A stretch of DNA of 64,000 nt from Patescibacteria group bacterium (GTDB lineage Bacteria > Patescibacteriota > Patescibacteriia > Patescibacteriales > UBA12465): the NCBI GenBank assembly GCA_041656935.1, contig JBBACQ010000002.1, forward strand, positions 27,603-91,602, given 5' to 3'. The notes below the pieces were generated by a model. The model was not told the origin of the DNA. It ran no database searches and saw only the letters and a list, made by a program, of their open reading frames with translations. Position 1 is the first letter of the stretch, and each line of letters begins with the position of its first letter. The translations under genes were made by a program, and so were the position numbers. Positions 8,012 through 30,840 of the stretch are shown here, in pieces.

Positions 8012-8131
8012 ATTTAATTTTAAGTTTAATAATTTTAATAATAGAAATAGCTTAAATAACGTTTATCTATGTTACTTAAAGATTAGTTAAAGTTTAAAAT
8101 GTTTTTTTAAGATAAGGGCAAAAATGCATTT

Positions 8132-8234
8132 CATATAACGTTCGCTGATATCTGACGTTTTGCCACTTCCTTTAAAAATCAATTTAGTGTGGCAAAATGT
8201 GGCTTTAGCCCTTGCAGATATCAGCTGTTGTGTG
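8132..8234 (-). other. attC-like imperfect-palindrome site, copy 1
   Basis: CATATAAC-GTTC-GCTGATATCTG...CAGATATCAGC-T-GTTGTGTG with inner stem TTTTGCCAC/GTGGCAAAA. Lies directly 3' of the nucleotidyltransferase stop codon. The structured repeat is certain; function as a recombination site is inference. Confidence 0.6.
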
Positions 8235-8287
8235 TCCCGAAGGGTCGGAGCGAAGCGGAGAAGTTGGTTTCTCTGGCGTCGTGATTA

Positions 8288-9058
8288 TTAAGTAGGACTT
8301 TTGATTTTCCAGCCATCAATATTAAATCCTCCCATTTTTTCAAGAACATGATTTGTTGCTATTTTATATTCATTCATCATTTTTGACTTATCTTTTAGGT
8401 TGATGGCTGAGACAATCATTTTAACAAATTTTTCATCTGGGAAATTGCTTACAAGATACTTTTTCTTGTCTTTTTCGTTTACTAGAAAACGTCTTAATTT
8501 ATGAATAGGTATTGAATCAAATTGCAAAAATTTCGCATAAGTTTCAAATAAATCATTCAAACAATTATAGAAAACAAAAAAGAATTCTTCCGACTTTGAA
8601 TCAAAAACTTCTTCTAAATTATCACACATATCCCAAATGTGGTATTTTGCTATTTCAATTTGGATCTTATTTTGCTTCGGATTTTTCTTTTGCAAATACT
8701 TTTTGGAATATTTAACAAGTTCTTTTAATTCGCCTGTTTTATCAAAAAGTATTTTTCCAGTACAGAACATGTGAGCGTTTATCTTTCTTCTTGATTTCAG
8801 ATCTTCTTCCAAGTATTGATGATGTCTTTTTGTTGGATTAGCGAAATATTCGATCAAAATACCATCGATAATTTCATTACCTCTTTCTCTCCAGGAAGTT
8901 TTTGCATCTAAAAGGATATGAATATCAATATCTGAATGATTACTAGGATTTCCAGTGATATAGCTACCGCAAACAATAGCCCCAATTACTTCTTTTTTGT
9001 TTTCCCATTTTTTGAGAAATTTTTGTAGGGCAATTCCCCAGTTTTCTTGTTTTTTCAT
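8288..9058 (-). CDS. nucleotidyltransferase-domain protein (Pol-beta superfamily, KNTase/ANT-like)
   Basis: 256 aa with N-terminal motif GSYITGNPSNHSDIDIHILLD (GS-X-D-X-D) and a helical C-terminal domain. Confidence 0.75.
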   Translation of the reverse strand: MKKQENWGIALQKFLKKWENKKEVIGAIVCGSYITGNPSNHSDIDIHILLDAKTSWRERGNEIIDGILIEYFANPTKRHHQYLEEDLKSRRKINAHMFCTGKILFDKTGELKELVKYSKKYLQKKNPKQNKIQIEIAKYHIWDMCDNLEEVFDSKSEEFFFVFYNCLNDLFETYAKFLQFDSIPIHKLRRFLVNEKDKKKYLVSNFPDEKFVKMIVSAINLKDKSKMMNEYKIATNHVLEKMGGFNIDGWKIKSPT

Positions 9059-9100
9059 AAGTCCTGCTTTTAATAAGATAAAACGTTGTTTTCTATTCTA

Positions 9101-9141
9101 GCCAGAGAAACCAATTACACACAACTGTTTATTATACGAAC
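9101..9141 (-). repeat. 5' boundary of the nucleotidyltransferase module
   Basis: GCCAGAGAAACCAA (9101-9114) is the reverse complement of 8264-8277. CACACAAC (9118-9125) complements GTTGTGTG at 8227-8234. CTGTTTATTATACGAAC (9125-9141) matches 30824-30840 at 16/17 positions. Confidence 0.7.
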
Positions 9142-9238
9142 AATCTCTCCACATTACCCCCCAACCAACCATACCAACCTTACAACAATTCTACCACACC
9201 CCCACAAAAATCTCAACCCCAAAAACCCCTCCCCAATT
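9139..9238. other. 100-nt G-free C/A-rich tract (G-run-rich on the minus strand)
   Basis: No G on the + strand between G9138 and G9239. The minus strand carries GGGG, GGGG, GGGG, GGGGG and GGGGGG runs. Confidence 0.9.
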
Positions 9239-9291
9239 GCCATTTTCAGAAAAATAATATAAACTCTCAACATAAACCTTAACCTAATTTT

Positions 9292-10353
9292 ATGTCATTA
9301 TCAATCGGAATAGTTGGTCTGCCCAACGTCGGAAAATCAACCCTTTTCAATATTCTTACCAAAAAAAAAGTAGATGCCTCTAACTATCCTTTTTGTACCA
9401 TCGACCCTAATGTTGGTGTCGTTAAAGTCCCTGACCAACGCCTAGAAAAAATTGCCGAAATCTCTCAACCCGCTAAAATAATACCCACTTTCATAGAATT
9501 TACCGACATTGCCGGACTAGTAAAAGGAGCTCATGAGGGCGAAGGCTTAGGCAATCAATTCTTAGCCCATATCCGGGAATGTGATGCCATTTGCGAAGTA
9601 ATTCGCGATTTCAAAGACCCCAATGTTATCCATGTTGACGGCGAAATCAACCCAACGAGTGACCAAGAAACCATTAACATGGAATTAATTTTTGCTGATT
9701 TAAAAACAATTGAAAAACGACTAGAGAAAATAAATAAAGAGATAAAAAGTAATGCTAAAGAAGCTATTAAACAAAAAGAGATTTTAGAGAAAATACAAAA
9801 AACATTAGAAAATGGAAAGGCCGTTAGATCATTAGAAGTAAAAGAAGATGACGAATCTTTTGTAAAAAGTTTAAATCTCCTAACTACCAAACCAATAATC
9901 TATGCCTTAAATTCTGACGAAACTGACGGTCCCACCAATTTCAATTGGGATGGAGAAACAATTAGAATAAATATTAAAATGGAAGAAGAAATTGCCTCTC
10001 TTCCCGAAGAAGAACAAGCCGAATATATGAAAGAATTAGGAATAAACAAAAATGGTTTAGAAAAACTAATCGCCTCTTCCTATAAACTACTAGGGTTAGA
10101 AACATTTTTCACTACTGGAAAAGACGAAACCCGAGCTTGGACCATAAAAAAAGGAACTAAGGCCCCGCAAGCCGCCGGAGAAATACATACTGATTTCGAA
10201 AAAGGATTCATTAGAGCCGAAGTTATCCATTGGGAAAAATTTATTCAAGTTGGATCAGAAACCAAGGCTAAAGAGTTAGGCCTAATCAGAACCGAAGGAA
10301 AAGACTATGTCGTTTCTGACGGCGATATTTGTAATTTTTTAATAAATAAATAA
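9292..10353 (+). CDS. ychF: redox-regulated ATPase YchF (Obg-like)
   Basis: 353 aa with P-loop GIVGLPNVGKSTLFN and a C-terminal TGS-like end. Confidence 0.9.
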   Translation: MSLSIGIVGLPNVGKSTLFNILTKKKVDASNYPFCTIDPNVGVVKVPDQRLEKIAEISQPAKIIPTFIEFTDIAGLVKGAHEGEGLGNQFLAHIRECDAICEVIRDFKDPNVIHVDGEINPTSDQETINMELIFADLKTIEKRLEKINKEIKSNAKEAIKQKEILEKIQKTLENGKAVRSLEVKEDDESFVKSLNLLTTKPIIYALNSDETDGPTNFNWDGETIRINIKMEEEIASLPEEEQAEYMKELGINKNGLEKLIASSYKLLGLETFFTTGKDETRAWTIKKGTKAPQAAGEIHTDFEKGFIRAEVIHWEKFIQVGSETKAKELGLIRTEGKDYVVSDGDICNFLINK

Positions 10354-10360
10354 ACCTCTC

Positions 10361-10393
10361 AAAAGTTCAAAAAAAGGCCGCCCTGAGGGCGGC
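10361..10393. terminator. bidirectional terminator
   Basis: AAAAAA-GGCCGCCC-TGAG-GGCGGCC-TTTTATTT between convergent genes. Confidence 0.7.
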
Positions 10394-10415
10394 CTTTTAT
10401 TTAGAGTAATAGATA

Positions 10416-10931
10416 TTAAACTAATTCTTTTTCTCTTTTCATCCTGGCTATAACTTCTTCCTGTCTCTTAATATCAATTAAATTTTGAGCAATCATCTTT
10501 TTTGTGGTTTCATAATGATCATCACCTGATAAAACTTGATCAAATAACTTATGAAGTTTTTCAGTGTTTTCATCAGACCACCCCTCAAAGTTTTTACTAG
10601 TAGCAAATCCTCTAAGGTAGTTCTTTATAAAATCAGCTTCTTCTCGATGACCATATTTATTCCATAAATTTATCATTTTTTCTAAGCCATTATAAAGACC
10701 TTCAAAAGTATTTCGGCCATTATAAGCTTCTTCGGCTAAAGAGTCCATCTGTCCCTTTAATTCCGTTAAACTTATTCCTTCTTCAGCCTCAAAAGCCTTG
10801 TTTTTTAATTCGGCTTCCTGCTCTTCTCTAGAAGTGTCTTTAACAACTTCTTTTTCTGAAATCTCTTCGTTTTTTTTCTCATCACTTTTCCCAGCTAAGT
10901 CAGCTGGAGATTTTTTAAAAAGGTTAAACAT
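10416..10931 (-). CDS. hypothetical acidic protein
   Basis: 171-aa ORF with ATG start; no recognisable motif. Confidence 0.5.
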   Translation of the reverse strand: MFNLFKKSPADLAGKSDEKKNEEISEKEVVKDTSREEQEAELKNKAFEAEEGISLTELKGQMDSLAEEAYNGRNTFEGLYNGLEKMINLWNKYGHREEADFIKNYLRGFATSKNFEGWSDENTEKLHKLFDQVLSGDDHYETTKKMIAQNLIDIKRQEEVIARMKREKELV

Positions 10932-10974
10932 AAGTTTTTAGTTTTAATTTTAATTTATAATTTTTCTATTTAAA

Positions 10975-11265
10975 TTAACGATAATCTTGCTTTCCATTTT
11001 GTATCCCCATAGCTCGTCTTAGAGCTTCTTCGGGAGTTATTTGTTTTTTTCTTAAACTTTCAAGGACTTGTCTTATTTCAAAAGGTTCACTATCATTAGA
11101 CCCAATTTGTTGAACTTCTTGTAGAATAAATCTTATTTTCATTTCGGCTTCTCCTTCGCTTAGGGGTGCTTTATTTAGGTTGCCTTCTGAACTATTATTA
11201 TTCGTTCCAGCTTCAATCCCGTCTGCCGAATTGTTATTTAGTTTACTTTCAAAATAATTATTCAT
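10975..11265 (-). CDS. hypothetical protein
   Basis: 96-aa ORF, co-oriented with the previous gene. Confidence 0.45.
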   Translation of the reverse strand: MNNYFESKLNNNSADGIEAGTNNNSSEGNLNKAPLSEGEAEMKIRFILQEVQQIGSNDSEPFEIRQVLESLRKKQITPEEALRRAMGIQNGKQDYR

Positions 11266-11552
11266 ATTTTTAAATTAATTTTAGATATTACCGTTTAAAC
11301 TAACATCTATATTATATCATATTTACAAAAAAAAGTCAATAGCTACCATTTACCCCTAATAATAAAGGGTTTTTATTAATAATTAATTACGCTAAAAAGG
11401 TATTTTAGCCTAAATAATCTAAAAAATAGAAAAATAAAACTTTAGTCTATTTTATTAAGTTTTATGTCTATTATTATAGCAAAAAAAAGTAATTAACAAA
11501 ATAGATTACAAAAAAAATAGAGAATTACCTCTATTTTCTTCTTATTATATTG

Positions 11553-11624
11553 TGACCCCTGGGGGAATCGAACCCCCGTTGTCAGGATGAAAACCTGGTG
11601 TCCTAACCACTAGACGAAGGGGCC
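11553..11624 (-). tRNA. tRNA-Glu (anticodon TTC)
   Basis: Cloverleaf read by eye: acceptor GGCCCCT/AGGGGTC, anticodon loop TTTTCAT, T-arm GGGGG-TTCGATT-CCCCC. No encoded CCA. Confidence 0.85.
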
Positions 11625-11628
11625 TTTA

Positions 11629-11664
11629 TTCAATGTTCAATTATCAATTATCAATTTTCAATTA
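11629..11664. repeat. tandem heptamer array (TCAATKW x5)
   Basis: TTCAATGTTCAATTATCAATTATCAATTTTCAATTA lies directly 5' of tRNA-Glu. An inverted relative is at 16981-17017. Confidence 0.8.
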
Positions 11665-11839
11665 TTTTTAATCAAAAGTTAATTATTGCTAAAATTACCC
11701 TAACTCTGAACAAGACCTTTTAAACTAAAACACTTTTAGCCCTTCACTAAAAGTGTTTTTATTTTATATTTATTTTGGTTAATTGTCAATACAATTAATA
11801 CCTTGCTCAAAAACAAAACTTCAGCTAAACTATAAACAT

Positions 11840-12886
11840 ATGTATATATTAGGACTAGAGAGCAGTTGCGACGAAAGCGCTGCTTCTATTATTAAATTCA
11901 ATCCCCAGGGAGAATTCCAAGTTTTATCAGAAGTAATATCTTCTCAAATAACCATCCATAAAAAATATGGTGGTGTGGTTCCAGAAATCGCAGCCCGTGA
12001 ACATGTCTTAAAAATAATCCCAACCATCGATAAATGTTTAGAAAAAGCTAAAATAAAACCACAAGATATTTCAGCCATCGCCTTAACTTCGGGACCGGGA
12101 CTAATAACCTCTCTTCTTTCTGCCAGCGAAACCGCTAAGGCCTTAGCTTTAATTTGGCAAAAACCAATAATTCCAATAAATCATATTGAGGGCCATATCT
12201 ATTCCGCTTTCATTGAAAACCAGAAAAAAATAAAACTTCCAACCTTAATCTTAACAGTTTCCGGTGGACATAATATTTTAGCCTTAATGGAGAAAAAATT
12301 AAAATACAAAATAATTGGCCAAACCTTAGATGACGCTGCCGGTGAAGCCTTTGATAAAGGAAGCAAAATGATGGGCTTAGGCTATCCTGGGGGACCAATT
12401 ATCTCTAAACTAGCTCAAAAATATATCTCTACAACCAAAAATATCGTTGAAATAGATCTGCCTCGGCCCATGATTTATTCCTCTAATTTAAATTTTTCTT
12501 TCTCCGGTTTAAAAACCGCTTTGCTCTATAAACTAAAAAATGATAAGAACTGGAAAAATAAAATCCCTCAATACTGCTATTCTTTTCAAAAAGCGATTAT
12601 TGATACTTTAGTATATAAAACTATTAAAGCCGTTAAAAAATATCCTATTAAAACAATTATGTTGGTCGGCGGAGTTTCAGCTAACACCGAATTAAAAAAA
12701 GAACTCTCCCAAAAAATAAAACACGATCTAAAAAACATTAATTTTGTTTATCCCTCTCTCAAACACACTGGAGATAATGCCACCATGATTGCTTTAGCCG
12801 GAATTCACCATTTTTTATATAATAAAAAAAACGTTAAAAATTATCGAAAAATAAAAATAAATTCTAACTTAAGTTTAGGCGGTTAA
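11840..12886 (+). CDS. tsaD: tRNA N6-adenosine threonylcarbamoyltransferase
   Basis: GLESSCDESAA N-terminus and HIEGH metal motif. ATG at 11840 chosen because the track start at 11783 is a TTG. Confidence 0.9.
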   Translation: MYILGLESSCDESAASIIKFNPQGEFQVLSEVISSQITIHKKYGGVVPEIAAREHVLKIIPTIDKCLEKAKIKPQDISAIALTSGPGLITSLLSASETAKALALIWQKPIIPINHIEGHIYSAFIENQKKIKLPTLILTVSGGHNILALMEKKLKYKIIGQTLDDAAGEAFDKGSKMMGLGYPGGPIISKLAQKYISTTKNIVEIDLPRPMIYSSNLNFSFSGLKTALLYKLKNDKNWKNKIPQYCYSFQKAIIDTLVYKTIKAVKKYPIKTIMLVGGVSANTELKKELSQKIKHDLKNINFVYPSLKHTGDNATMIALAGIHHFLYNKKNVKNYRKIKINSNLSLGG

Positions 12887-12927
12887 CAAAAAACCCCATA
12901 AATAAGGGCTTTTAGAGAAAAAATGTC

Positions 12928-12970
12928 TGTGGATAAAACTATTGACATTTTTTTATTTATATGCTACAAT
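12928..12970 (+). promoter_or_regulatory. consensus sigma70-type promoter with adjacent perfect DnaA box
   Basis: TGTGGATAA (12928-12936), TTGACA (12942-12947), 17-nt spacer, TACAAT (12965-12970). Confidence 0.7.
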
Positions 12971-12976
12971 CACAAG

Positions 12977-13117
12977 TTATGTTTTAAAAATTAAAAAACC
13001 GATTAGAACGGGCCAGGCACGACAAGCATGGGATTTTCTTTCAGGGTTTGTAAGGCATTTGCTTTAAAATTCCTAAAAGAAATTTTCTTGCCTATCCCGT
13101 TCAAGTCGGTTTTTTTT
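12977..13117 (+). ncRNA. candidate small structured RNA (rod-like hairpin), function unknown
   Basis: Has its own promoter. 5' AACCGATTAGAACGGG pairs with 3' CCCGTTCAAGTCGGTT followed by T8; further pairs include AGGCA/TGCCT and TTCTTT/AAAGAA. No ORF; lies between tsaD and a convergent gene. Confidence 0.45.
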
Positions 13118-13129
13118 ATTTGCAAAAAA

Positions 13130-14233
13130 CTAGTCTTTTATACAACGGACTGAAAAGCCAATAACATTACTGAATTCAATTCCAGCAACCAAAGCATGTG
13201 TCTGACTAAAATAGCGCCCCCAAGAAGAACCGGAACCACCACTTGAAGATGACCAAAAATAAGAAACAAGAGTAAGATCAACAAGCAATCCACCGGTACT
13301 ACGACCACCAGCTGGCAAAGCTGTAAATCCGGAAGAATTATTAGAAGGTTGATCGTTCCCAACCCGACAACTTGTTCCATACGAAGTCCAACCAGAAGAA
13401 CTGGCTAAGGCTTTTGCTATCCAAGTAGAAGTCCCTCCACACCAATACTGGCTATTAGCACTTAAATAAGTAGTTAAGGTGATCCATTCGGTAACAGTTG
13501 GCACATGCCAACCAGAAGGACAAATTCCTTGGTTCACCGAAGTAGTATATTGCATCATCTCATTCCATTGATATAATCCCCCATAAACATCACAATTACT
13601 TTCCAAATCATTATTACAATACTTTTCTAAAACAGAATTATTAGTTTGATCACTTGCTCCAGCTATTCTGGTACCAACGTTTAAATTTTTAGCTGTCCAA
13701 CATTGAGTTCCAATCTCAACTGTCGGATAAGATTCTCCAGCATAAGAAAAGGAGTCTCCACAGGAAAAAGCAATTTCTTCTTCCTCCTCTTCTTCGCTAG
13801 AAACACCAACTATACCAAATGGACTAGCTTCTTTAACACCAGAACTTAAACTAGCCACCGAACCGCCCAAACAAAAAGTGATAACATAAGAACCATTATC
13901 TTCCCCAGCTTCCGTATAAACATATTGATTATTTTCTTCAGTACAATCACCATCAGGTGGAGTGGGGGCATCAGGATATATTTCCATATAAACCTTAGCT
14001 CCGGAATTAATAGAACTAGTTACTGAGGTTGAAGCTGGATATTCACCATTATCATTAAAAAATAATTCTAGGGCAGTTTGAATTTGTTTAATATCAGCTA
14101 TTCTTTTAGCATCTCGAGTATTTTTTCTAGCATTTTGCAAAGACACTATCGCCAAAGTGGCTAACACACCAATAATAGCGATCACTACCAATAATTCTAC
14201 TAGAGTAAAAGCTTTTTTATTGGTTTTATACAT
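13130..14233 (-). CDS. type IV pilin-like protein fused to a FISUMP (Fibrobacter succinogenes major paralogous) domain
   Basis: Prepilin N-terminus KAFTLVELLVVIAIIGVLA and poly-Glu linker. The C-terminus CWTAKNLN...GGLYQW...CPSGWHVPT...YFWSSS...GFSVRCIKD is typical of FISUMP. Confidence 0.8.
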   Translation of the reverse strand: MYKTNKKAFTLVELLVVIAIIGVLATLAIVSLQNARKNTRDAKRIADIKQIQTALELFFNDNGEYPASTSVTSSINSGAKVYMEIYPDAPTPPDGDCTEENNQYVYTEAGEDNGSYVITFCLGGSVASLSSGVKEASPFGIVGVSSEEEEEEEIAFSCGDSFSYAGESYPTVEIGTQCWTAKNLNVGTRIAGASDQTNNSVLEKYCNNDLESNCDVYGGLYQWNEMMQYTTSVNQGICPSGWHVPTVTEWITLTTYLSANSQYWCGGTSTWIAKALASSSGWTSYGTSCRVGNDQPSNNSSGFTALPAGGRSTGGLLVDLTLVSYFWSSSSGGSGSSWGRYFSQTHALVAGIEFSNVIGFSVRCIKD

Positions 14234-14254
14234 AAGTTTTTGTAATTATTGAAA

Positions 14255-16141: not shown

Positions 16142-16168
16142 AATTTAAACCTTATTATTATCAAAATA

Positions 16169-16378
16169 CTAACCTAATAACTCATTAAGAATATCCTTGG
16201 CAGATTGTTTTCTCTTTTCTAAATCAATACTATTTAAAGAAATTAAAAAATTTAACTTATCACCGATTTTAACATCTTTTGGGAGATTTTTTTGAGGCCA
16301 AACCACATCAAACCCCTGTTCACTTCGTAAAACAGCCTGATCATTTTTAAATTCTACCAAAGACAAACTTATTTCCAT
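16169..16378 (-). CDS. small DUF3006-like protein
   Basis: 69 aa. The pattern ...AVLRSEQGFDVVWPQKNLPKDVKIGDKL... resembles DUF3006. Confidence 0.4.
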   Translation of the reverse strand: MEISLSLVEFKNDQAVLRSEQGFDVVWPQKNLPKDVKIGDKLNFLISLNSIDLEKRKQSAKDILNELLG

Positions 16379-16385
16379 ATTAAAA

Positions 16386-16817: not shown

Positions 16818-16821
16818 ATTG

Positions 16822-16894
16822 TGGGCATAGATGGATTTGAACCATCGACCCCCGCCTTATAAGGGCGGTGCTCTAACCACTGAGCCATATGCCC
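16822..16894 (-). tRNA. tRNA-Ile (anticodon TAT)
   Basis: Acceptor GGGCATA/TATGCCC, anticodon stem CCGCC/GGCGG, loop CTTATAA, T-arm GATGG-TTCAAAT-CCATC. Confidence 0.8.
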
Positions 16895-16980: not shown

Positions 16981-17017
16981 TAATTGAAATTGATAATTGA
17001 AAATTGAACATTGAATT
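16981..17017. repeat. heptamer array, inverted relative of 11629-11664
   Basis: The reverse complement AATTCAATGTTCAATTTTCAATTATCAATTTCAATTA shares TTCAATGTTCAATT plus TCAATT units. Lies between tRNA-Val and tRNA-Ile. Confidence 0.8.
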
Positions 17018-17021
17018 AACG

Positions 17022-18535: not shown

Positions 18536-18562
18536 AAATAAATAATAATTAAAAACAAAAAA

Positions 18563-19257: not shown

Positions 19258-19270
19258 AAATATCAATACA

Positions 19271-22001: not shown

Positions 22002-22011
22002 TTCCAAAATT

Positions 22012-22386: not shown

Positions 22387-22390
22387 AAAT

Positions 22391-23416: not shown

Positions 23417-23461
23417 TTATGTAACTTATCTATATTAACTTACATAATTAATCTAAATAAT

Positions 23462-25918
23462 ATGAATATATCATTAAATTGGCTAAAGGAGTTTGTTAGT
23501 TTATCAAATATTAGCTCCGAAGAAATAAAAGACCGACTAACGGCCCATACTGTTGAAGTAGAAAAAATTATAAAACAAAAAGAACAATATCAAAATATTG
23601 TAGTAGCTGAAATTTTAGAAATAAAAAAACATCCGCAAGCTGATAAATTACAATTAGTTCTAGTTGATGCTGGAGAAAAGGAAAATTTAAAGGTTGTTTG
23701 CGGAGCTTTTAACATTTCTTGCGGACAATTAGTCCCTTTGGCTAAAATTGGAGCAATCTTACCAAATGGTTTAGAAATAAAAAAGGCTGAAATTAGAGGA
23801 GAAGAGTCAAATGGAATGCTCTGTGCTGAAGATGAACTAGGACTAGGATCTAACCATGATGGGATAATGATTTTATCCTCCCAAGCCAAAAAGGGAGAAC
23901 TTTTAGCTGATTATCTAGAATTAAACGAAGTTGTCTTAGAAATAGACAATAAATCAATCTCTAATCGCCCTGATCTTTGGTCTCACTATGGAATTGCTCG
24001 AGAATTGGCCATCTTATTTAATAAAAAATTAGATGATTATTCAACCAAAGAAATTAAAATAAAAAAAGACAATAAAAAAGAGAAAACAAAACTAGAAGTA
24101 AAAATAGAAGTTAAAAATCTTTGTCAAAAATATTTAGCTCTAAAAATAGAAAATATAAAAATTGAAGATTCACCGAAATGGCTAAAAAACAGATTAACCT
24201 CTTTAGGAGTTAAACCAATAAATAATATTGTTGATATTACAAATTATATTATGTTTGAAACCGGACAACCACTTCATGCCTTTGATGGCGAAAATATTAA
24301 AAAAATAATAATTAAGAAAGCTACTAAGAACGAAAAAATCATGGGGCTAGATGAAGGAGAAAAAAAATTAGAAGAAGATGACTTGGTTATTAGTAGCGAC
24401 AAAGAAACCATTGCTATCGCTGGAGTTATTGGTGCTAAAAATAGTCAAATAAATAACACCACTTCAACTATTATTATAGAGTCGGCTAATTTTGATGCTG
24501 TTTCAGTTAGAAAAACAGCTCAAAGACTAAACACTAGAACTGATGCCGCGATGCGCTTTGAGAAAGGGCTAGATCCAAACTTATGTAAAATAGCTATTAA
24601 TAAAGCTGGGGAAATGATAAAAAAAATCTCTCCCTCGGCTAATTTTAATCATGAGATAATAGAAACCGGAGATTTTGTGGAAGAAAACAAGATCATAACT
24701 TTAGATTTAGATTGGGCCGATAAACTTATTGGTCAAAAAATTGATAGAAAGGAAATTAAAAAAATCCTAGAAAGCTTAGGACTAAAAATAGAAAAAAATA
24801 AAAACCTGAAAAAAAATGAAGACAAATCTTGGGCTGAAGAATGGGATATTAAAATTCCATCTTGGAGAACAAAAGACTTATCAATTAAAGAAGATCTTAT
24901 TGAAGAAATAATAAGAATCTACGGCTATGATAATATTAAATCAAGCTCCCCTAAGGGTGAAATAATCCCTCCCGAAAAAGATAAAGAATTGGAATTAATT
25001 AAAAAAATAAAAAAAATCTTAGCTTTAAGCTACAAAATGAACGAAGTTTATAATTATTCCTTTGTAAGCGAAGAACAATTATTAAAACTAAATTTAGATC
25101 CTAAAACATACCTTCAACTATTAAATCCTTTATCAACTCAACATACTCTCTTGAGACAAACCATGACCACTCATTTACTATCTAATGTTAAAACCAACCA
25201 AGCCAAATATAATAAAATAGCTTTATTTGAAATTGGTAATGTTTTCTTGAATATCAGTGGAGACTTAAATAAAGACGAAACTCTATTGAATAATTTACCT
25301 TATCAAGAGAAAAAAATAGGATTAATCCTAGCCGAAAATACAAACGAAAAATTTAAAAATTTAAAAAATATAATATTTAATGCCATCGAAGAAATTAGCG
25401 AAGGAGCAGAATTAAAATTTTTACCAACCGAATCAATAATAGATTGGGCCGACCAAAATGAAAAATGCTTATTAATGTTGAATGACAAAGAAATTGGATT
25501 TTTAGCTACTATCAGTAAAGAAGTTTTAAATAAAAACGGAATTAAAAAAGAGGTTTCAGCCCTAGAAATCAGTCTTAAGTCGTTATTATCAGCTCTATCT
25601 AATCTAGAAACCAAACAATATCAAGAAATCCCTAAATTTCCCCCAATCAATCGAGATCTAGCCTTTGTAATTGATGAAAAAATATTTTATAATGATATTA
25701 GACAAGAAATCAAAGATTTTAATCCTTTAATAAAAAGAGTTGATTTGTTTGATGTTTATTCGGGCAAAAATCTAGAAGCTAATAAAAAGAGTTTGGCCTT
25801 CCATGTAATTTATCAATCTGGAGAAAAAACTTTAACCAATGAAAGTGTCGATAAAATTGAAGCTGAATTAATAAAATTATTAGAAAGTAAATTTAATGCT
25901 CAAATTAGGAACTTTTAA
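23462..25918 (+). CDS. pheT: phenylalanine--tRNA ligase beta subunit
   Basis: 818 aa with N-terminal tRNA-binding domain, B3/4 and B5 domains, and a C-terminal anticodon-binding fold. Confidence 0.95.
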   Translation: MNISLNWLKEFVSLSNISSEEIKDRLTAHTVEVEKIIKQKEQYQNIVVAEILEIKKHPQADKLQLVLVDAGEKENLKVVCGAFNISCGQLVPLAKIGAILPNGLEIKKAEIRGEESNGMLCAEDELGLGSNHDGIMILSSQAKKGELLADYLELNEVVLEIDNKSISNRPDLWSHYGIARELAILFNKKLDDYSTKEIKIKKDNKKEKTKLEVKIEVKNLCQKYLALKIENIKIEDSPKWLKNRLTSLGVKPINNIVDITNYIMFETGQPLHAFDGENIKKIIIKKATKNEKIMGLDEGEKKLEEDDLVISSDKETIAIAGVIGAKNSQINNTTSTIIIESANFDAVSVRKTAQRLNTRTDAAMRFEKGLDPNLCKIAINKAGEMIKKISPSANFNHEIIETGDFVEENKIITLDLDWADKLIGQKIDRKEIKKILESLGLKIEKNKNLKKNEDKSWAEEWDIKIPSWRTKDLSIKEDLIEEIIRIYGYDNIKSSSPKGEIIPPEKDKELELIKKIKKILALSYKMNEVYNYSFVSEEQLLKLNLDPKTYLQLLNPLSTQHTLLRQTMTTHLLSNVKTNQAKYNKIALFEIGNVFLNISGDLNKDETLLNNLPYQEKKIGLILAENTNEKFKNLKNIIFNAIEEISEGAELKFLPTESIIDWADQNEKCLLMLNDKEIGFLATISKEVLNKNGIKKEVSALEISLKSLLSALSNLETKQYQEIPKFPPINRDLAFVIDEKIFYNDIRQEIKDFNPLIKRVDLFDVYSGKNLEANKKSLAFHVIYQSGEKTLTNESVDKIEAELIKLLESKFNAQIRNF

Positions 25919-25955
25919 AAATTAAAAATAAATTAATAAATTAAACTTTAAAATT

Positions 25956-26255
25956 ATGTTAGAAACAAGCCGAGATATTTTAAACTTATCAATCGCCGTG
26001 GCCGTTATAGCTTTAGCTATTTTTCTTTGTTGGACCTTATACTATTTTATTTCTAATCTAAAGCGATTAAACCGAATCAGTAGCAAAATAGAGAAAGGAG
26101 TAGTCAAGGTTGACGGGCTAATAGATTTGATAAAAGATAAAGTCAAAAGAAGTAGTTCTTATTTATTCCTTTTTTCTAAACTAGCTGATCGGGCTATCGA
26201 TTATTTTAGCCGAAAGAATGAAGAAAAAAAAGAGAACAAAAAGAGCAAAAAATAA
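25956..26255 (+). CDS. hypothetical membrane-anchored protein
   Basis: 99 aa with one TM helix and a Lys-rich tail. Confidence 0.5.
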   Translation: MLETSRDILNLSIAVAVIALAIFLCWTLYYFISNLKRLNRISSKIEKGVVKVDGLIDLIKDKVKRSSSYLFLFSKLADRAIDYFSRKNEEKKENKKSKK

Positions 26256-26273
26256 TTTTTTAATCTAAAGAAA

Positions 26274-27272
26274 ATGAAAAAAACAATTCTTACCGGCGAT
26301 CGTCCTACCGGACAATTACATATCGGTCATTTATTTGGCTCCCTGCTTAATCGAGTTAAATTACAAAAAGAATACCAAACCTATATTATGTTAGCCGATG
26401 TTCAGGCCTTAACTGATAATTTTAATAACCCGGAAAAGGTTAGAACTAATGTTATGGAAGTAGCTATGGATAATTTAGCGGTTGGAATCGACCCTAAACA
26501 TTCAACTATTTTTATTCAATCTCTTATACCGGAAATTGCCGAACTAACTGTATTTTATTCTAATTTAGTAACAATTGCTCGTTTGCAAAGAAATCCAACG
26601 GTTAAAGAAGAAGTCGGCCAAAAACCGGAGCTCTTTAAAGATAGTGTAACCTTTGGATTCTTAGGTTATCCAGTTAGCCAAGCCGCCGATATTACTGCTT
26701 TTGAAGCTGATTTAGTGCCTGTCGGCGAAGACCAATTACCAGTGATAGAACAGACCCGAGAGATTGTTAAAAAATTTAATAATATTTATGGCCAAACCTT
26801 AGTTCTCCCCACAGCTTTAGTCAGCGATTTTGGTCGTGTTAAAGGGTTGGATGGAAATACCAAAATGGGCAAAAGCTTAGATAATGCTATTTTTATAGCC
26901 GACACCCCAGAAATAATTAGAACTAAAGTTAATAAAGCCTTAACTGATTCTCAGAAAGTAAAATTAAATGATAAGGGACGACCAGAAATTTGTACTGTTT
27001 TTTCTTATCATAAAATTTTCAGCCAAACTAATCTAACAACCATTAAACAAGAATGTCAAAATGGAACTCGAGGTTGTTCTCAATGTAAAAAAGAATTAGC
27101 CGAAAATATTATAGAATTTTTAAAACCAATTCAGGAAAAGAGAAAATATTATGAGAAAAGACCGAAGTTGGTGGAGAAAATATTGAAAGATGGAACTAAA
27201 AGAGCCAAAAAGAAAGCCGAAGAAACTTTAAAGAAGGTAAAGAAGAAGATGAAATTAGATTATTTTAAATAG
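26274..27272 (+). CDS. trpS: tryptophan--tRNA ligase
   Basis: 332 aa with GQLHIGHL and KMGKS motifs. Confidence 0.95.
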   Translation: MKKTILTGDRPTGQLHIGHLFGSLLNRVKLQKEYQTYIMLADVQALTDNFNNPEKVRTNVMEVAMDNLAVGIDPKHSTIFIQSLIPEIAELTVFYSNLVTIARLQRNPTVKEEVGQKPELFKDSVTFGFLGYPVSQAADITAFEADLVPVGEDQLPVIEQTREIVKKFNNIYGQTLVLPTALVSDFGRVKGLDGNTKMGKSLDNAIFIADTPEIIRTKVNKALTDSQKVKLNDKGRPEICTVFSYHKIFSQTNLTTIKQECQNGTRGCSQCKKELAENIIEFLKPIQEKRKYYEKRPKLVEKILKDGTKRAKKKAEETLKKVKKKMKLDYFK

Positions 27273-27280
27273 AAAATAAT

Positions 27281-27311
27281 AAAAAATAGAGGTCTAAGGC
27301 CTCTATTTTTT
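27281..27311. terminator. bidirectional terminator
   Basis: AAAAAATAGAGG-TCTAAGG-CCTCTATTTTTT between convergent trpS and the 93-aa gene. Confidence 0.65.
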
Positions 27312-27339
27312 ATTTAAACGAAATTATTTTAATAATAAT

Positions 27340-27621
27340 TTAAGATCTTCTTTCTTCTTGATAGGCCTTATATCTCCTAACGAATTCATCAATATCGTCT
27401 TTGTGGATTTTAACATCACAATAATTTCCTGGGTTTCCTAGAATACGAAGGCCATCGCCCAAATTTGGACAATCACAACTCTCATCACCGAAAGCATAGG
27501 CAACACCATATTGACCTTGTTTTTTTAATATCTGTCTTGAGACATCTCCAAAATTAACAAAACCGTCTTTATCTGCCTCAAATGAAGGTTTTTGTTCAAA
27601 CGATGATTCTTTGGGTCCCAT
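27340..27621 (-). CDS. hypothetical Cys-containing small protein
   Basis: 93-aa ORF with ATG start; no recognised motif. Confidence 0.5.
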   Translation of the reverse strand: MGPKESSFEQKPSFEADKDGFVNFGDVSRQILKKQGQYGVAYAFGDESCDCPNLGDGLRILGNPGNYCDVKIHKDDIDEFVRRYKAYQEERRS

Positions 27622-27714
27622 AGTTTTTAAATTAAATTTAAATTATATAATAAGTATTTTTTATTTTTTTACAAACTTCTTTTTTATCTATGAGTTAAAA
27701 ACTATTAAATATTT

Positions 27715-27802
27715 CACATAACGTTCGTTGATATCTGACGTTCTCCGTAGCGATAGCAGAGGAGAATGTGGCGAAGCCCTTGCAGATATCAGCTGTTATG
27801 TG
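27715..27802 (-). other. attC-like imperfect-palindrome site, copy 2
   Basis: CACATAAC-GTTC-GTTGATATCTG...CAGATATCAGC-T-GTTATGTG with inner stem TTCTCC/GGAGAA. Lies directly 3' of the HD gene stop codon. Confidence 0.6.
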
Positions 27803-27838
27803 CCCCAAAGGGTCGGAGCGATAGCGGAGATGTAAATC

Positions 27839-28423
27839 TTAAACTCCTTTTATTTTTCGTTGGTACTCATCCCAATCGTTTTTCATCTGTTCAAGCTTGG
27901 GTTTACCTAAACGTCGGCTAATATCAAAATTCAACAAATCAAATTTACCAAGCTTCCGTTGAATTTCATCCGTAAGTCCGTTTTTAAAAACCCACTCGAT
28001 CCAGAGCATATACAGTTTTTTATCAAAATACAAAGCGACCGCGTCTGCATCTTTTACAATTTTCATTTCGGTTGAATCACTACTATATGAAATAATATCA
28101 CGAACATGTTTTAATTCATCAATGTCTAGACCAAGACTGTTCAAGAATTCTTGAGATACGGATAAGTTAAAACTTTCGTGGTTTTTATGGAGCGTTTCCG
28201 GATCAGCATGATGGGTCTTGCCAATATCGTGTAGTAATGCACCAATCGCGGCTACGGTTTTATTACACTCAACTTCTTCAGATATTTTCATCACCAGCTC
28301 TTGGACTGTAACGCTATGGTTGTACATAACCGACCAATGATTAAAACTAAAATGCGGGTTCTTTTGAAAAGAACGTTTTACAAATTCTTTTGTTTTTTCA
28401 ACTAAATCGTGTTTATATTCCAT
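27839..28423 (-). CDS. HD-domain phosphohydrolase
   Basis: 194 aa with metal-binding ...GALLHDIGK... HD motif. Confidence 0.75.
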   Translation of the reverse strand: MEYKHDLVEKTKEFVKRSFQKNPHFSFNHWSVMYNHSVTVQELVMKISEEVECNKTVAAIGALLHDIGKTHHADPETLHKNHESFNLSVSQEFLNSLGLDIDELKHVRDIISYSSDSTEMKIVKDADAVALYFDKKLYMLWIEWVFKNGLTDEIQRKLGKFDLLNFDISRRLGKPKLEQMKNDWDEYQRKIKGV

Positions 28424-28450
28424 AAAAATAAAAGGGGTTTAAGATTTATT

Positions 28451-28547
28451 GCACATAACGTTTGCGGATATGAGAAGTTGCGACCGTAGGGAGCAATTTG
28501 GGTGAGCCCCGAGCCGAGGGGCGAACCTCATATCCGCTGTTATACGC
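28451..28547 (-). other. attC-like imperfect-palindrome site, copy 3
   Basis: GCACATAAC-GTTT-GCGGATATGAG...CTCATATCCGC-T-GTTATACGC. The 11-bp stem differs from copies 1 and 2 at three positions, all compensated on the other arm. Confidence 0.6.
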
Positions 28548-28601
28548 CCCGACGACTGAAAGGAGGAGAGCGCAGCGTGGCACGGAGCGAAGCGGAGTGA
28601 G

Positions 28602-28694
28602 TTCAAAAAATATTTTTCGTTCTCATTAATTATGATAGGCTTTCCTCAATTCTTATAAATTTGATTTTTTCCGTTTTGAAAAATGAAAGAGGGG
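28602..28694. repeat. left arm of a long imperfect inverted repeat flanking the rSAM-methyltransferase pair
   Basis: Collinear identical blocks versus the reverse complement of 30727-30813: 17 nt (28602-28618), 13 nt (28632-28644), 14 nt (28657-28670) and 7 nt (28688-28694). Confidence 0.8.
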
Positions 28695-28728
28695 TTAGGG
28701 GTGAATTTCATTTTTCAAATTCATTAAT

Positions 28729-29838
28729 TTAAGGATGTAAATGTTCTACGCAACCTTTATTTCTTGGAATGTGTTTTGCTAAATATTTTGTAGCTTCACA
28801 AAACTCTTTAACTATCCCTAAAAAATTTCCAGTTGAATAATAAGCCAAGCCCGCACAACCTCCACCACAATTTGATCTTATTTCGCAATTTTTGCATTCA
28901 TCAATAAATTTTGTATTTCTTTGCCTTATTCTTGTCATCTTTTCAGGATAATATATAATTTCATTTTTTTCTTTATCATATTTTCCAAAGATAAATTCTG
29001 AAAGTTGCGTTTTTCCTGAATATGCTAAATCACATCCAGAAACATAACCATCAGCAGTAAGTTGAGGCATTGGGATACAAGAACGACACGCGTAATTACA
29101 AGGTTCATCAAAATTTACTGTGAAAAAATTACCATAGTGCATTCCAATTTTTTCAGCATGTTTGTATGCTTTAACAAAATGTTCAGCAAATTCCTTTAAG
29201 TTTATAGGTGTAATTTGTTTTACTCCTGCTTTACCTTCTTGTTTGACGCTTTCAAAAACAGGTTCGGCATAAACCCATTTTATCCCTATTGAATTAAAAT
29301 AATCCAATATTTCAATTTGCTTATTTATGTCTTGGGGCAAGATTGTTGCTCTTGCACCAACAAAAACTCCTTCTTTTTGTAAAAATTTTACATTTCTGAC
29401 GATGGTGTCAGAAGTTTCTTGACCTCCTCTCGCAGGTCTGTTTCTATTTTGAATATAACTTGGTCCATCAATCGAAATCCATACTTCAGCAACATTTTTT
29501 GCAATCCATTTTGCCGTATCTTCTGAAAAAAATCCATTTGTTTGCAATTCTACAAACAAATCTTTTCCTTTAATTTTTTTAGCATATTCTGTAATTGCTT
29601 TTACTAAATCCATTCTTGTGGTTGGTTCTCCAACTCCATAAAATCTAATCATATTATTGCCAACACCAAAAAAGTCTGTTTTATCCCTGAAAAAATCATC
29701 CATACCTTTTTTGGCAAAATCCAAATCAATTGCTTTTTCCTCTCCAACATGTCTTGTGTCATTAACACAATAAACGCAGTTTAGATTGCATTTAGATGTT
29801 ATGAAAAAAGTTATTGTTCTTTTTCTTTCGTGAGCCAT
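28729..29838 (-). CDS. radical SAM enzyme with C-terminal SPASM-type Cys cluster
   Basis: 369 aa with CNLNCVYC (CxxxCxxC), GVGEPT and QTNG motifs, and C-terminal CKNCEIRSNCGGGCAG. Confidence 0.8.
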   Translation of the reverse strand: MAHERKRTITFFITSKCNLNCVYCVNDTRHVGEEKAIDLDFAKKGMDDFFRDKTDFFGVGNNMIRFYGVGEPTTRMDLVKAITEYAKKIKGKDLFVELQTNGFFSEDTAKWIAKNVAEVWISIDGPSYIQNRNRPARGGQETSDTIVRNVKFLQKEGVFVGARATILPQDINKQIEILDYFNSIGIKWVYAEPVFESVKQEGKAGVKQITPINLKEFAEHFVKAYKHAEKIGMHYGNFFTVNFDEPCNYACRSCIPMPQLTADGYVSGCDLAYSGKTQLSEFIFGKYDKEKNEIIYYPEKMTRIRQRNTKFIDECKNCEIRSNCGGGCAGLAYYSTGNFLGIVKEFCEATKYLAKHIPRNKGCVEHLHP

Positions 29839-29839
29839 A

Positions 29840-30649
29840 TTATTTCCTCGCAGTTAAAAAATAATAACCGACATTAGTATAATTTATTTTTTTATTATTT
29901 CCACGCATTAATTCAGGTTTTATATTTTTGAAATTAGAATTTTTTAATTGTTCTAAGATTATTGGTAGGCAAACTTTTAATTCTTCAATTCTCAAAATAT
30001 CCATAAAAGCTGTTTTGATTTGATCAATCACGTCTGCCTCTTGAGGTTTTGGCATTGATAAAATTTGTGCAGAAGCATATTTTAAAATATTTTCAATAAA
30101 TTGTACTTTATTTTTTGGGTTAAAATTTTTATCAAATTCATAATCTGGAATAAATACTTCAGCAACAATTAAAGTACCTCCAACTTTTAGATTATTATAG
30201 ATATTTTTTATTGCTTTTGGTTTGTCAAAAAGATGATGATAAGTAGCTGTTAAAATTACTATATCAAAATAATTTTCTTTCTGAAAAATTTCAGCTGTCC
30301 CATTTAGGATTTTCGCCTTACCTTTTGTTTCTTTGTTTGTCATATCTCTAAAAACTTTTTCAGGTTCAACAACGACATACTCTTGAATATTTTTATTATT
30401 GATAATTTTGCCAGCTAAAATACCTGGTCCAGAGCCATATTCCAAAATTTTGACAGGTCTTTTTTGTTGGTTGATAATTTTTTCAATTCTATCAAACCAC
30501 TCTAAATATAATGGATATTGTTTAACTTGTTCTAAGTATTGTTTTCTTATGGTTGTTGGGTCTGTCACTGAATATCCTTTTTGCAAAGATTCCCCTAATT
30601 CATTTATTGATTTCCAGATTTGGTTTGAATTTTTTTTAATCATATTCAT
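29840..30649 (-). CDS. class I SAM-dependent methyltransferase
   Basis: 269 aa with motif I ILEYGSGPGILA. Its stop codon lies 1 nt from the rSAM start, so the two are probably co-transcribed. Confidence 0.75.
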   Translation of the reverse strand: MNMIKKNSNQIWKSINELGESLQKGYSVTDPTTIRKQYLEQVKQYPLYLEWFDRIEKIINQQKRPVKILEYGSGPGILAGKIINNKNIQEYVVVEPEKVFRDMTNKETKGKAKILNGTAEIFQKENYFDIVILTATYHHLFDKPKAIKNIYNNLKVGGTLIVAEVFIPDYEFDKNFNPKNKVQFIENILKYASAQILSMPKPQEADVIDQIKTAFMDILRIEELKVCLPIILEQLKNSNFKNIKPELMRGNNKKINYTNVGYYFLTARK

Positions 30650-30726
30650 TAAGTATAGTTAAGAATTTAAAAAGTCTTCTAATATAAATCGTTTTCGGAA
30701 CGAAGTGGAGAAAACACCATATTATC

Positions 30727-30813
30727 CCCCTCTATAAATAAAGAAAAAATCAAATTTATTCCCCTTTGAAAGCCTATCATTTCTTATTCTCCGTTAGAAA
30801 AATATTTTTTGAA
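30727..30813. repeat. right arm of the long imperfect inverted repeat
   Basis: Blocks at 30797-30813, 30768-30780, 30744-30757 and 30727-30733 are reverse complements of the left-arm blocks. Confidence 0.8.
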
Positions 30814-30815
30814 TT

Positions 30816-30840
30816 GCATATAACTGGTTATTATACGAAC
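30816..30840 (-). repeat. 5' boundary of the rSAM-methyltransferase module
   Basis: GCATATAAC (30816-30824) complements GTTATACGC at 28539-28547 at 8/9 positions. CTGGTTATTATACGAAC (30824-30840) matches 9125-9141 at 16/17. Confidence 0.7.

Follow-up and report, generated by a model that had tools for sequence, protein, structure and literature searches.

Likely integron-type cassette arrays on integrase-less attI-like platforms in a Patescibacteria genome

Two cassette loci among translation genes

We analyzed a 64-kb stretch of the genome of a Patescibacteria group bacterium (contig JBBACQ010000002.1; this whole stretch is referred to as the window), in which genes bounded by attC-like sites lie at two positions. 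Locus A, on the purL/pepE-ychF side, holds one full attC-like site and a hairpin-less mini-site; locus B, between trpS and topA, holds two sites 0.6 kb apart and no integrase. We consider it likely that both loci (one cassette at A, two at B) are integron-type arrays seated on attI-like platforms without an integrase gene, and that they are probably serviced in trans.

Pfam searches identified purL, an S51 peptidase gene (pepE-like), a Pol-beta-type nucleotidyltransferase gene, ychF, tsaD, valS, pheS, pheT, trpS, topA and genes for an HD protein, a radical SAM protein and a methyltransferase. An initial reading of the sequence (the original prediction) had placed the two loci among translation genes, about 18.5 kb apart. 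The genes it named are confirmed and, with locus A ending at 9143 and locus B starting at 27706, the spacing is 18.56 kb, but the interval also contains a pilin-like gene, VanW, HSP20 and DHH, none of them translation genes, plus three tRNAs. Of the outer limits drawn at that stage, 30840 is exactly the last position of a simple site at locus B, and 8062 falls inside the mini-site (8058-8080). The closest homologues of TrpS and YchF are from Patescibacteria, and an identical YchF is present in NCBI as MFA5644113.1 ('Patescibacteria group bacterium'), encoded on a contig of 123,066 bp.

The window was also said to lack any recombinase or transposase, and this holds. All window open reading frames (ORFs) of 80 aa or more (60 aa or more in the first half) were searched with Pfam, and none matched a tyrosine recombinase, a serine recombinase or a transposase; a tblastn search of the window for integrase remnants, using three array-linked integrases described below, gave a best E-value of 0.35. 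Rfam, run on the whole window at gathering thresholds, returned four tRNAs only; the attC-like sites match no curated RNA family.

A structure-conserved family of attC-like sites

The three sites, S1 to S3, were found by repeat finding and direct reading of the sequence. They are ~110-150 nt long and lie directly downstream of minus-strand ORFs (Table 1). In order, each site has ATTKCAYATAAC, a 3-4 nt bulge (GTTY) and the first arm of an 11-nt stem; two small inner hairpins separate this arm from its complement, after which come (C)T-GTTRYRY and a G+C-rich tail with GCGAAGC-like motifs. A covariance model built from 18 members of the site family, run with filters off, gave E-values of 2e-17 to 5e-26 for S1-S3 and found no further site in the window above 17 bits. 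As single-stranded DNA, the + strand of the three sites is predicted to fold with -23 to -28 kcal/mol (z -3.3 to -4.7). This is the strand antisense to the ORFs, and its predicted fold is more stable than that of the opposite strand by 2.4-5 kcal/mol; S1 would correspond to the folded bottom strand of the nucleotidyltransferase cassette. Relative to S1 and S2, the 11-nt stem of S3 is changed in both arms in a compensating manner, and near-identical copies of S3 are present in contigs of Moraniibacteriota, Gammaproteobacteria, Omnitrophota, Methanolobus and Halobacteriota. The mini-site of locus A is a weak match to the model (8044-8083, 9.3 bits), and a similar sequence occurs at a cassette boundary in L024 (718-752; loci fetched for comparison carry L numbers).

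A 25-nt pattern taken from the 5′ arm matched 27 contigs among GTDB representative genomes, with about two chance matches estimated. The bacterial matches come from Omnitrophota, Gammaproteobacteria, Actinomycetota, Bacteroidota, Spirochaetia, Atribacterota and several lineages of the candidate phyla radiation (CPR), and the archaeal ones from Altiarchaeales (on a 1.39-Mb contig), Halobacteriota, Methanolobus and ANME-1. Most are complete hairpins near-identical to S1 or S3, and many stand at contig ends, as repeats do. In viral contigs the same pattern gave two matches, neither of them a genuine site. With the covariance model we identified same-strand arrays of seven sites in L017, at least nine in L020 and four each in L026 and L011. 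Successive array sites are separated by 150-2600 nt, usually with one ORF in each gap, and 41 of 50 array ORFs are antisense to the modeled strand.

Base pairing within this family is strongly conserved. Scored over 78 aligned sites, 96.4% of the cells pair and 220 are compensatory, and both partners vary in 10 of 16 pairs; no shuffle out of 500 reached this level, and slid registers are 30-49% paired. The L stem is a continuous 11-bp helix, 96% paired and free of extrahelical bases. In place of an unpaired spacer on both arms there is only the 3-4 nt bulge (GTTY) in the 5′ arm, opposite 0-1 nt, and TAAC...GTTA is invariant or nearly so. The family follows the logic of integron attC sites, in which structure is kept, sequence is free and the AAC and GTT boxes are fixed.

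In the sites that share the S1-type inner hairpin (S1, L016, L024 and L026), the sequence right after GCTG/TT (here and below, a slash within a motif marks the crossover) is unrelated from one to the next, and so is the sequence before. We considered whether the hairpin is an independent insert into a palindromic simple site. This idea partly accounts for the combination of one hairpin with different flanks, and is not needed for the window.

Cassette boundaries and recurrence of a cassette

When the crossover is set at ATAA/CGTT on the + strand, which corresponds to AACG/TT on the ORF strand, each cassette regains a 9-bp R stem once its two ends are joined. This stem is perfect for the nucleotidyltransferase cassette (ACACACAAC with GTTGTGTGT) and for the HD cassette (GCACATAAC with GTTATGTGC, plus a 25-bp outer stem), and 8/9 for the radical SAM-methyltransferase cassette. 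Circularizing also unites the module-specific inverted repeats into long outer stems; these repeats differ by module, and each can be understood as the outer stem of its own cassette in circular form. The predicted circular junction of the HD cassette (...GATTTATTGCACATAA/CGTTCGTTGATATC...) folds with -42.7 kcal/mol (z -8.4), compared with -27.6 in array context, and that of the radical SAM-methyltransferase cassette with -63.6 kcal/mol (z -6.2), compared with -42.6 (z -1.9). Complementarity of cassette ends is a family-wide property, with 58% of 31 cassettes lying above the 95th percentile of mismatched controls.

The boundaries are also defined by a second copy of a cassette in another array. 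Window positions 8137-9131 match 7929-8920 of L119 with 94.7% identity over 995 nt, and this homology starts and stops at AACG/TT on both sides, in agreement with the predicted cassette crossover at the G/TT of the R′ box. In L119 the nucleotidyltransferase cassette stands second, between an AAA_33 and an isochorismatase cassette, in an array that adjoins an attI-like site and a divergent recombinase gene. The 90%-identity cluster of the nucleotidyltransferase protein has 20 members, mostly on 1-3 kb contigs, and the L119 copy is one of them.

As for the cargo, the nucleotidyltransferase, HD, radical SAM and methyltransferase assignments of the original prediction are confirmed, whereas its description of this content as defense-style is not demonstrated: PADLOC and NCBIfam gave weak, domain-level matches only.

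Conserved sequence also surrounds the attC core. Modules of ~70-110 nt on its two sides (28587-28700 and 30740-30813) are inverted copies of each other, and they are conserved beside unrelated ORFs in Omnitrophota, Gammaproteobacteria, Methanolobus, Peribacteria and this CPR genome, as judged from L001, L017, L022, L002, L014 and L020; the 28602-28671 module recurs beside sites in the first three of these loci. A hairpin at 28664-28707, found also in L110 (~13430-13480) and L023, has a conserved loop, GAGGGGTTAGGGGTGAA, on stems that differ in a compensating manner. Situated between cassette ORF and attC tail, it looks like a second structured motif conserved in these cassettes.

attI-like simple sites

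A shared 19-mer, AACTGKTTATTATACGAAC, marks the right end of both loci (9123-9141 and 30822-30840; two copies found, compared with 0.01 expected). Each copy belongs to a hairpin-less site, reading AATTACACACAAC-TG-TTTATTATACGAAC at locus A and AATTGCATATAAC-TG-GTTATTATACGAAC at locus B. Site B scores 14.1 bits with the covariance model and is homologous to 11526-11686 of L111. The same simple-site motif is found 60-130 nt upstream of integrase genes in ~20 loci, where its conserved form is ATTTCnnnTAAC-TnGTT-TATA-CGAA; a second box, TATACGAA, ~45 nt nearer the integrase is common in related loci, and a candidate for such a box follows site B (Table 1). The chromosome carries two simple sites in direct orientation, 21 kb apart, neither with an adjoining enzyme gene.

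Both loci retain the integrase-proximal attI-like half-site without an integrase gene. The original prediction had described them as a CALIN-type situation (clusters of attC sites lacking an integrase); the attC-like sites, the cassettes and the lack of a nearby integrase agree with that description, but with their attI-like half-sites the loci are not bare CALINs.

Several loci carry palindromes of the form TATACGAAG-N4-5-TTCGTATA beside the simple site, and L013 has an attI-proximal box, TATACGAAGTTAT (~3940-3955), which looks identical to the 13-nt loxP arm. In the window, a G-free, C+A-rich tract (CCACATTACCCCCCAACCAACC...CCCCTCCCC, 9144-9235) separates the attI-like site from the ychF promoter region; it is partly common to L113.

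Linkage of the site family to a XerA-like recombinase

In L013, L018 and L024, a gene for a tyrosine recombinase of 272-286 aa lies 60-130 nt beyond the simple site at the array end and is transcribed away from the array. When all ORFs of the first 27 loci were compared with each other, this recombinase was the only recurrent family of note. A metagenome scan with an alignment of the three proteins yielded 80 loci containing 41 site-model matches, 35 of which lie upstream of the integrase on the same strand, in 19 loci. Ranked by match, the top 15 loci that extend at least 1.5 kb upstream include 12 with such sites.

These enzymes resemble XerA more closely than IntI. Their scores against NF040815 (XerA) are 217-241 bits, two of the three (240.6 and 240.4) exceeding the 220-bit cutoff, whereas against TIGR02249 (IntI) they reach 208-215 bits, below the 265-bit cutoff, with the match split in two pieces. 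In a PDB search the best match was Pyrococcus abyssi XerA (4a8e), aligned end to end. In the alignment with Vibrio cholerae IntI4 (2a3v), the 28 enzyme residues 186-213 stand opposite 70 residues of IntI4 (175-244), leaving ~42 residues missing. Published descriptions place the IntI-specific I2 region there (PMC4889954, PMC7790495). The 120 closest homologues, of 221-295 aa, are mostly from Patescibacteria, often on 1-3 kb contigs and often annotated 'site-specific tyrosine recombinase/integron integrase'. The original prediction had offered, besides a distant IntI-like enzyme, a different enzyme family as the one servicing the sites, and the recombinase linked to them elsewhere is of this second kind: XerA-like and without the IntI-specific insertion.

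The I2 helix of IntI is held to enable recombination of folded, single-stranded attC sites (PMC4889954, PMC7790495). Here two absences fit one another: the enzyme has no I2, and the sites have no extrahelical bases, bearing a one-sided bulge instead. Arrays with all other integron hallmarks are repeatedly found beside an I2-less XerA-like enzyme, with sites that lack the feature I2 reads.

The recombinase of L119 (6229-7041) is 54.6% identical to the L018 enzyme. Its gene has two TGA codons in frame, and one of these occupies the position of the conserved Gly in the KGxKDR motif. Under genetic code 25, three other gene pairs of L119 fuse. The contig may belong to a TGA-recoding CPR lineage, yet it shares its 94.7% identical cassette with the window, which uses code 11.

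Turnover among relatives

Relatives share the gene order around both loci but differ in content. The trpS-topA interval of the window contains the 93-aa ORF plus the HD and radical SAM-methyltransferase cassettes; in L111/L112 (901-kb contig) it holds one Pterin_4a cassette that has an attC and an outer repeat of its own, together with the same attI-like site and its second box. At this position L110 contains other small ORFs with attC sites, followed by a restriction/SNF2 island, and L109, 96% identical in nucleotide sequence in the flanks, has one unrelated 216-aa ORF and no site. Between CsoR and ychF, L114 has 130 nt only and L113 has a DCD gene and an HpaII restriction-modification system, both without sites. 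The two loci are hot spots of content change, and at locus B different cassettes occupy a common attI-like platform without a local integrase. The original prediction had proposed that a complete genome and relatives with no candidate recombinase and no polymorphism at the loci would point to ancient, immobile relics or a non-recombinational role; both loci differ among relatives, which favors its reading of the modules as cassettes. Even a reduced CPR chromosome retains hot spots of cassette exchange between core genes.

The flanks distal to the last attC take part in this variation. At locus A this flank is the pepE-like ORF, whose cassette status is not shown; it is missing in L114 and replaced in L113. 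At locus B it is the 93-aa ORF, missing in L109 and L111, and a homologue of it adjoins a site in the same position in L012 (Moraniibacteriota).

The segment with purL (1291 aa) and the pepE-like gene (3437-8011) has a G+C fraction of ~0.40, compared with ~0.30 in its surroundings. It is not in L114, where CsoR abuts ychF, and its place in L113 is taken by the DCD gene and restriction-modification system. purL and pepE belong to the variable segment at locus A and look like a foreign island; purL alone is odd in a CPR genome. In L111, a degenerate ~25-nt copy of the topA 3′ end (11660-11686 and 13008-13035) flanks a 1.3-kb KilA-N insertion, which suggests another element targeting the end of topA.

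Proposed mechanism and its limits

Read on the minus strand, each cassette comprises 5′-TTRT, the ORF(s), the tail, an R″ box (RYRCAYAAC), the 11-nt L stem, two small hairpins, the L stem again and (R)AACG-3′. By analogy with integrons, the + (bottom) strand would fold, as single-stranded DNA, into a three-way-junction hairpin, which a tyrosine recombinase would cut on that strand at 5′-ATAA/CGTT. The cut strand would be exchanged with a double-stranded attI-like site (...ATAA/C-TGKTTATTATACGAAC), and the single exchange would be resolved by replication. The likely catalyst is an I2-less XerA-like recombinase acting in trans. The enzyme gene is not in the window, so either a copy in another part of the genome services the cassettes in trans, and they may be active at present, or they have been frozen since the enzyme was lost.

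Several observations weigh against this interpretation. There is no recombinase in the 64 kb, and the linkage of putative integrases to arrays elsewhere is purely positional. The L119 integrase is intact only if its host reads TGA as sense, and may otherwise be decaying. Site geometry departs from that of canonical attC sites, with a one-sided 3-4 nt bulge in place of a ~5x5 spacer and an uninterrupted 11-bp L stem, and the strand preference rests on modest energy differences and one conserved G-T pair. The half-site of locus A is not in relatives, and the mechanism does not account for its presence. Finally, the same inner hairpin is joined to unrelated flanks on both sides in different genomes, for which a single crossover point is insufficient.

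More tentatively, we suggest that the site family may represent an integron lineage, so far undescribed, that is widespread among CPR bacteria, several further bacterial phyla and archaea. The Xer-like integrase of this lineage would either never have acquired the I2 helix or have lost it, its attC sites would correspondingly have no extrahelical bases and form bulged three-way junctions, and the platforms in the window would be served in trans. This broader reading is possible, if less secure than the interpretation of the two loci themselves. Were it true, the lineage would be a living counterpart of the proposed stage of integron origins at which a Xer-like ancestor was hijacked by single-stranded elements (PMC7790495), and it would account for some of the surplus of CALINs relative to IntI genes in metagenome-assembled genomes. 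If the enzyme works as proposed, it would provide a testable model for the origin of integrons from Xer systems, a new structure-specific recombinase-site pair for engineering, and a route by which near-identical cassettes could pass among CPR bacteria, Proteobacteria and archaea.

Comparison with known systems

The resemblance to integrons extends to the arrays of mostly single-ORF cassettes in one orientation, the imperfect-palindrome site at the cassette terminus with structure conserved over sequence, the AAC...GTT boxes with crossover at G/TT, and the pairing of cassette ends upon circularization. Integrase-less clusters exist in both, and in related loci an attI-like site lies beside a divergently transcribed tyrosine recombinase gene. 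In contrast to integrons, however, the linked recombinase lacks the ~40-residue IntI-specific (I2) region; extrahelical bases are missing from the sites, where a one-sided bulge of 3-4 nt takes the place of a symmetric unpaired spacer; the inner three-way junction is near-identical across phyla and domains; cassette-end complementarity reaches 14 to ~50 bp past the R box; and the window has attI-like half-sites with no integrase gene. The system would work like an integron and agrees with one in most structural criteria, but we do not file it as a canonical integron because it departs from two defining ones, the IntI-specific domain and the fine structure of canonical attC sites. Recombinases near attC sites that lack the C-terminal signature of IntI have been concluded not to be integron integrases (PMC4889954), and published work describes archaeal integrons with canonical IntI, many CALINs, and attC sites 95-100% identical across domains (PMC9668308). 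CALINs are defined operationally by IntegronFinder, with its own attC model, as at least two attC sites within 4 kb and no intI nearby. In the literature on integrons and attC sites in Patescibacteria/CPR and on attC-like sites with Xer, of which our coverage is partial, we found no such pairing of enzyme and array; novelty is unproven.

Systems built on XerA, XerS or XerH, and dif with its integrative mobile elements exploiting Xer (IMEX), likewise have an I2-less enzyme of the Xer family. That a folded hairpin can recombine with a short palindromic double-stranded site is known, as in the integration of CTX phage by XerC/D, the gene adjoins the site in some single-recombinase systems, and the closest solved structure by sequence is P. 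abyssi XerA. Unlike these, the arrays described here have many short promoterless cassettes, more than one target site per chromosome with no sign of the terminus, and inserted units without phage or plasmid functions. The pdif modules of Acinetobacter plasmids are similar in being small accessory-gene modules with Xer-type sites in varied contexts. They differ in using 28-bp double-stranded sites in inverted pairs, and have no long hairpin, array polarity or dedicated adjoining recombinase.

Alternative explanations

The loci could be ordinary CALINs of canonical integrons, with a classical I2-bearing IntI encoded elsewhere or in other cells and the neighboring XerA-like genes as bystanders. 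IntI1 recombines very diverse attC sites, archaeal ones included, and both near-identical attC sites across domains and a large excess of CALINs relative to IntI genes in metagenome-assembled genomes have been reported (PMC9668308). The R boxes also fit RYYYAAC and GTTRRRY, with some copies reading GCCTAAC and GTTAGGC, and crossover takes place at G/TT as in integrons. Yet no canonical IntI is present in any of the ~120 loci fetched, the sites lack extrahelical bases and a symmetric unpaired spacer, and the short recombinase stands at the array end, with fixed polarity and a conserved simple site, in three genome loci, 19 metagenome loci and L119. We regard this explanation as unlikely. Two of the three enzymes exceed the XerA equivalog cutoff and the alignment with XerA runs end to end, as a dif/Xer system with IMEX-like passengers would have it; the simple site would then be a dimer resolution site, and the hairpin cassettes single-stranded hijackers like CTX phage. 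The simple site, read directly from the sequence, is a short imperfect palindrome (..CATATAAC-TG-GTTAT..) that presumably resembles a dif site, and in XerS/difSL the recombinase gene adjoins its site. There is also precedent for an I2-less Xer enzyme integrating a folded hairpin (PMC7790495). Two direct-orientation simple sites 21 kb apart, neither with an enzyme gene, argue against such a system, however, as do the lack of any reversal of cumulative GC skew at either locus, the absence of the locus A site from relatives, and arrays in which at least seven to nine short one-ORF units share an orientation and run divergently to the recombinase gene, which is the layout of integrons. This makes a dif/Xer origin distinctly improbable, more so than canonical CALINs.

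Stable hairpins just downstream of ORFs, as at all three sites, are also expected of terminators, 3′-untranslated-region structures or elements resembling repetitive extragenic palindromes (REP) or miniature inverted-repeat transposable elements (MITE). The window has no enzyme, its modules end in MITE-like inverted repeats, and the sites could then be immobile relics or serve a non-recombinational role. We give this little credence, and it is largely refuted by the recombinase linkage, in which polarity is fixed, and by the L119 match, in which the same cassette stands in another array with exact G/TT boundaries. In addition, the sites have no Rfam match, the strand that folds better runs antisense to the ORFs, relatives differ in content at both loci, and the inverted repeats differ between modules, such that no single transposase could recognize them. 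An artefact of assembly or binning, in which repeated attC sites stitched foreign cassettes into a CPR contig, is hardly credible. Near-identical sites across phyla do break assemblies, many matches lie at contig ends, and L028 terminates within S3 and L116 within S1, as is expected at repeats. These same two independent assemblies, from other samples, nevertheless reproduce the junctions of the window (trpS-93-aa ORF-S2-HD-S3 in L028, pepE...S1 in L116), and relatives on 62-kb and 901-kb contigs have sites of the same family between trpS and topA.

We rejected several other candidates. A riboswitch, small RNA or terminator is at odds with a better-folding strand that lies antisense to the ORFs and with sites that form exact boundaries of mobile units; for a MITE or transposon with terminal inverted repeats, the repeats differ by module. 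IS200/IS605, REP and its RAYT transposases, retrons, group II introns and CRISPR do not fit the anatomy, and no such enzymes or RNAs are in the window.

Other features of the window

Table 1. Coordinates of sites, cassettes and neighboring features in the window. A slash within a motif marks the crossover.
Feature	Position	Strand	Evidence or remark
S51 peptidase (pepE-like) ORF	7400..8011	-	PF03575, 3e-18
Hairpin-less mini-site ATAACGTTTATCTATGTTAC	8058..8080	+	R″-like and R′-like boxes, no L stem; read from sequence
S1, attC-like	8123..8261 (core 8123-8239 plus tail)	+	96.9 bits, E 3e-23; DNA fold -24.3 kcal/mol, z -4.1
Cassette 1 (nucleotidyltransferase and S1)	8139..9124	-	Crossovers at ATAA/C, + strand
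Outer inverted repeat, cassette 1, 3′ arm, pairs with 9101-9114	8265..8278	+	TTGGTTTCTCTGGC versus GCCAGAGAAACCAA, read from sequence
Pol-beta-type nucleotidyltransferase ORF (cargo)	8288..9058	-	PF18765, PF01909
Outer inverted repeat, cassette 1, 5′ arm	9101..9114	+	Read from sequence
attI-like simple site A	9115..9143	+	Cassette-derived part to 9124; platform half C-TGTTTATTATACGAAC, 9125-9141
Promoter-like site reading into cassette 1	9188..9216	-	TTGAGA-17-TAGAAT with TG; weak, regional count not above shuffles
93-aa ORF, function not assigned	27340..27621	-	No Pfam match
S2, attC-like site of HD cassette	27706..27830 (core 27706-27807 plus tail)	+	74.8 bits, E 2e-17; fold -23.4 kcal/mol, z -4.65
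Cassette 2 (HD protein and S2)	27722..28458	-	Circular-junction fold
Outer inverted repeat, cassette 2, pairs with 28424-28448	27833..27857	+	blastn, 25 nt at 96%, inverted
HD/HDIG-domain ORF (cargo)	27839..28423	-	PF01966, 1e-11; TIGR00277
Outer inverted repeat, cassette 2, partner arm	28424..28448	+	blastn
S3, attC-like site of two-gene cassette	28443..28597 (core 28443-28551 plus long tail)	+	107.7 bits
Cassette 3 (methyltransferase, radical SAM/SPASM, S3)	28459..30823	-	Circular-junction fold
Outer inverted-repeat module, cassette 3, 3′ side	28602..28671	+	Two 17-nt perfect inverted matches to 30743-30813
Radical SAM/SPASM ORF (cargo)	28729..29838	-	PF04055; best NCBIfam PapB-like, 113 bits, under cutoff
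Class I SAM methyltransferase ORF (cargo)	29840..30649	-	PF13489, PF08241
Outer inverted-repeat module, cassette 3, 5′ side	30743..30813	+	Conserved upstream of sites in L002, L014, L020
attI-like simple site B	30813..30843	+	Cassette-derived part to 30823; platform half C-TGGTTATTATACGAAC, 30824-30840
Second TTATGCGAAT box, possible accessory binding site	30871..30880	+	Read from sequence
Promoter-like site between topA stop and attI-like site, reading into cassettes	30913..30941	-	TTGATT-17-TATAAT with TG; weak, count not above shuffles

Outside the two loci, the window contains further repeats. At 48734-50014, a tRNA-Cys gene precedes a 181-nt tandem repeat (48790-49151, plus a third, partial copy reaching ~49240), each copy of which contains the palindrome AAAAAAACAACCCAAACTGCTTTGGGTTGTTTTTTT; behind the repeat lie a Gp49/HigB-like gene and an HTH_3 gene, likely a toxin-antitoxin pair. 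This region may be the scar of a tRNA-integrated element. Nearby, a duplicated module (46727-48161) consists of 61 nt at 95% identity (46727-46787 and 47803-47863) plus 300 nt at 79% and heads two paralogous ORFs to which no function is assigned (46781-47632 and 47857-48615). An inverted repeat at 12982-13126, in which a 57-nt spacer separates arms of 44 nt, lies between tsaD and the pilin-like gene; it matches nothing in Rfam and may represent either a structured RNA or a bidirectional terminator. A tRNA-Ile gene with anticodon TAT was found by ARAGORN at 16821-16894. It lies, together with tsaD, the pilin-like gene, VanW and HSP20, in the 5.3 kb enclosed by a 33-nt inverted repeat (94% complementary, TTCAATGTTCAATTATCAATT..., 11625-11657 and 16987-17019) that abuts tRNA-Glu and tRNA-Val, and similar sequence is present near the tRNA region of L111.

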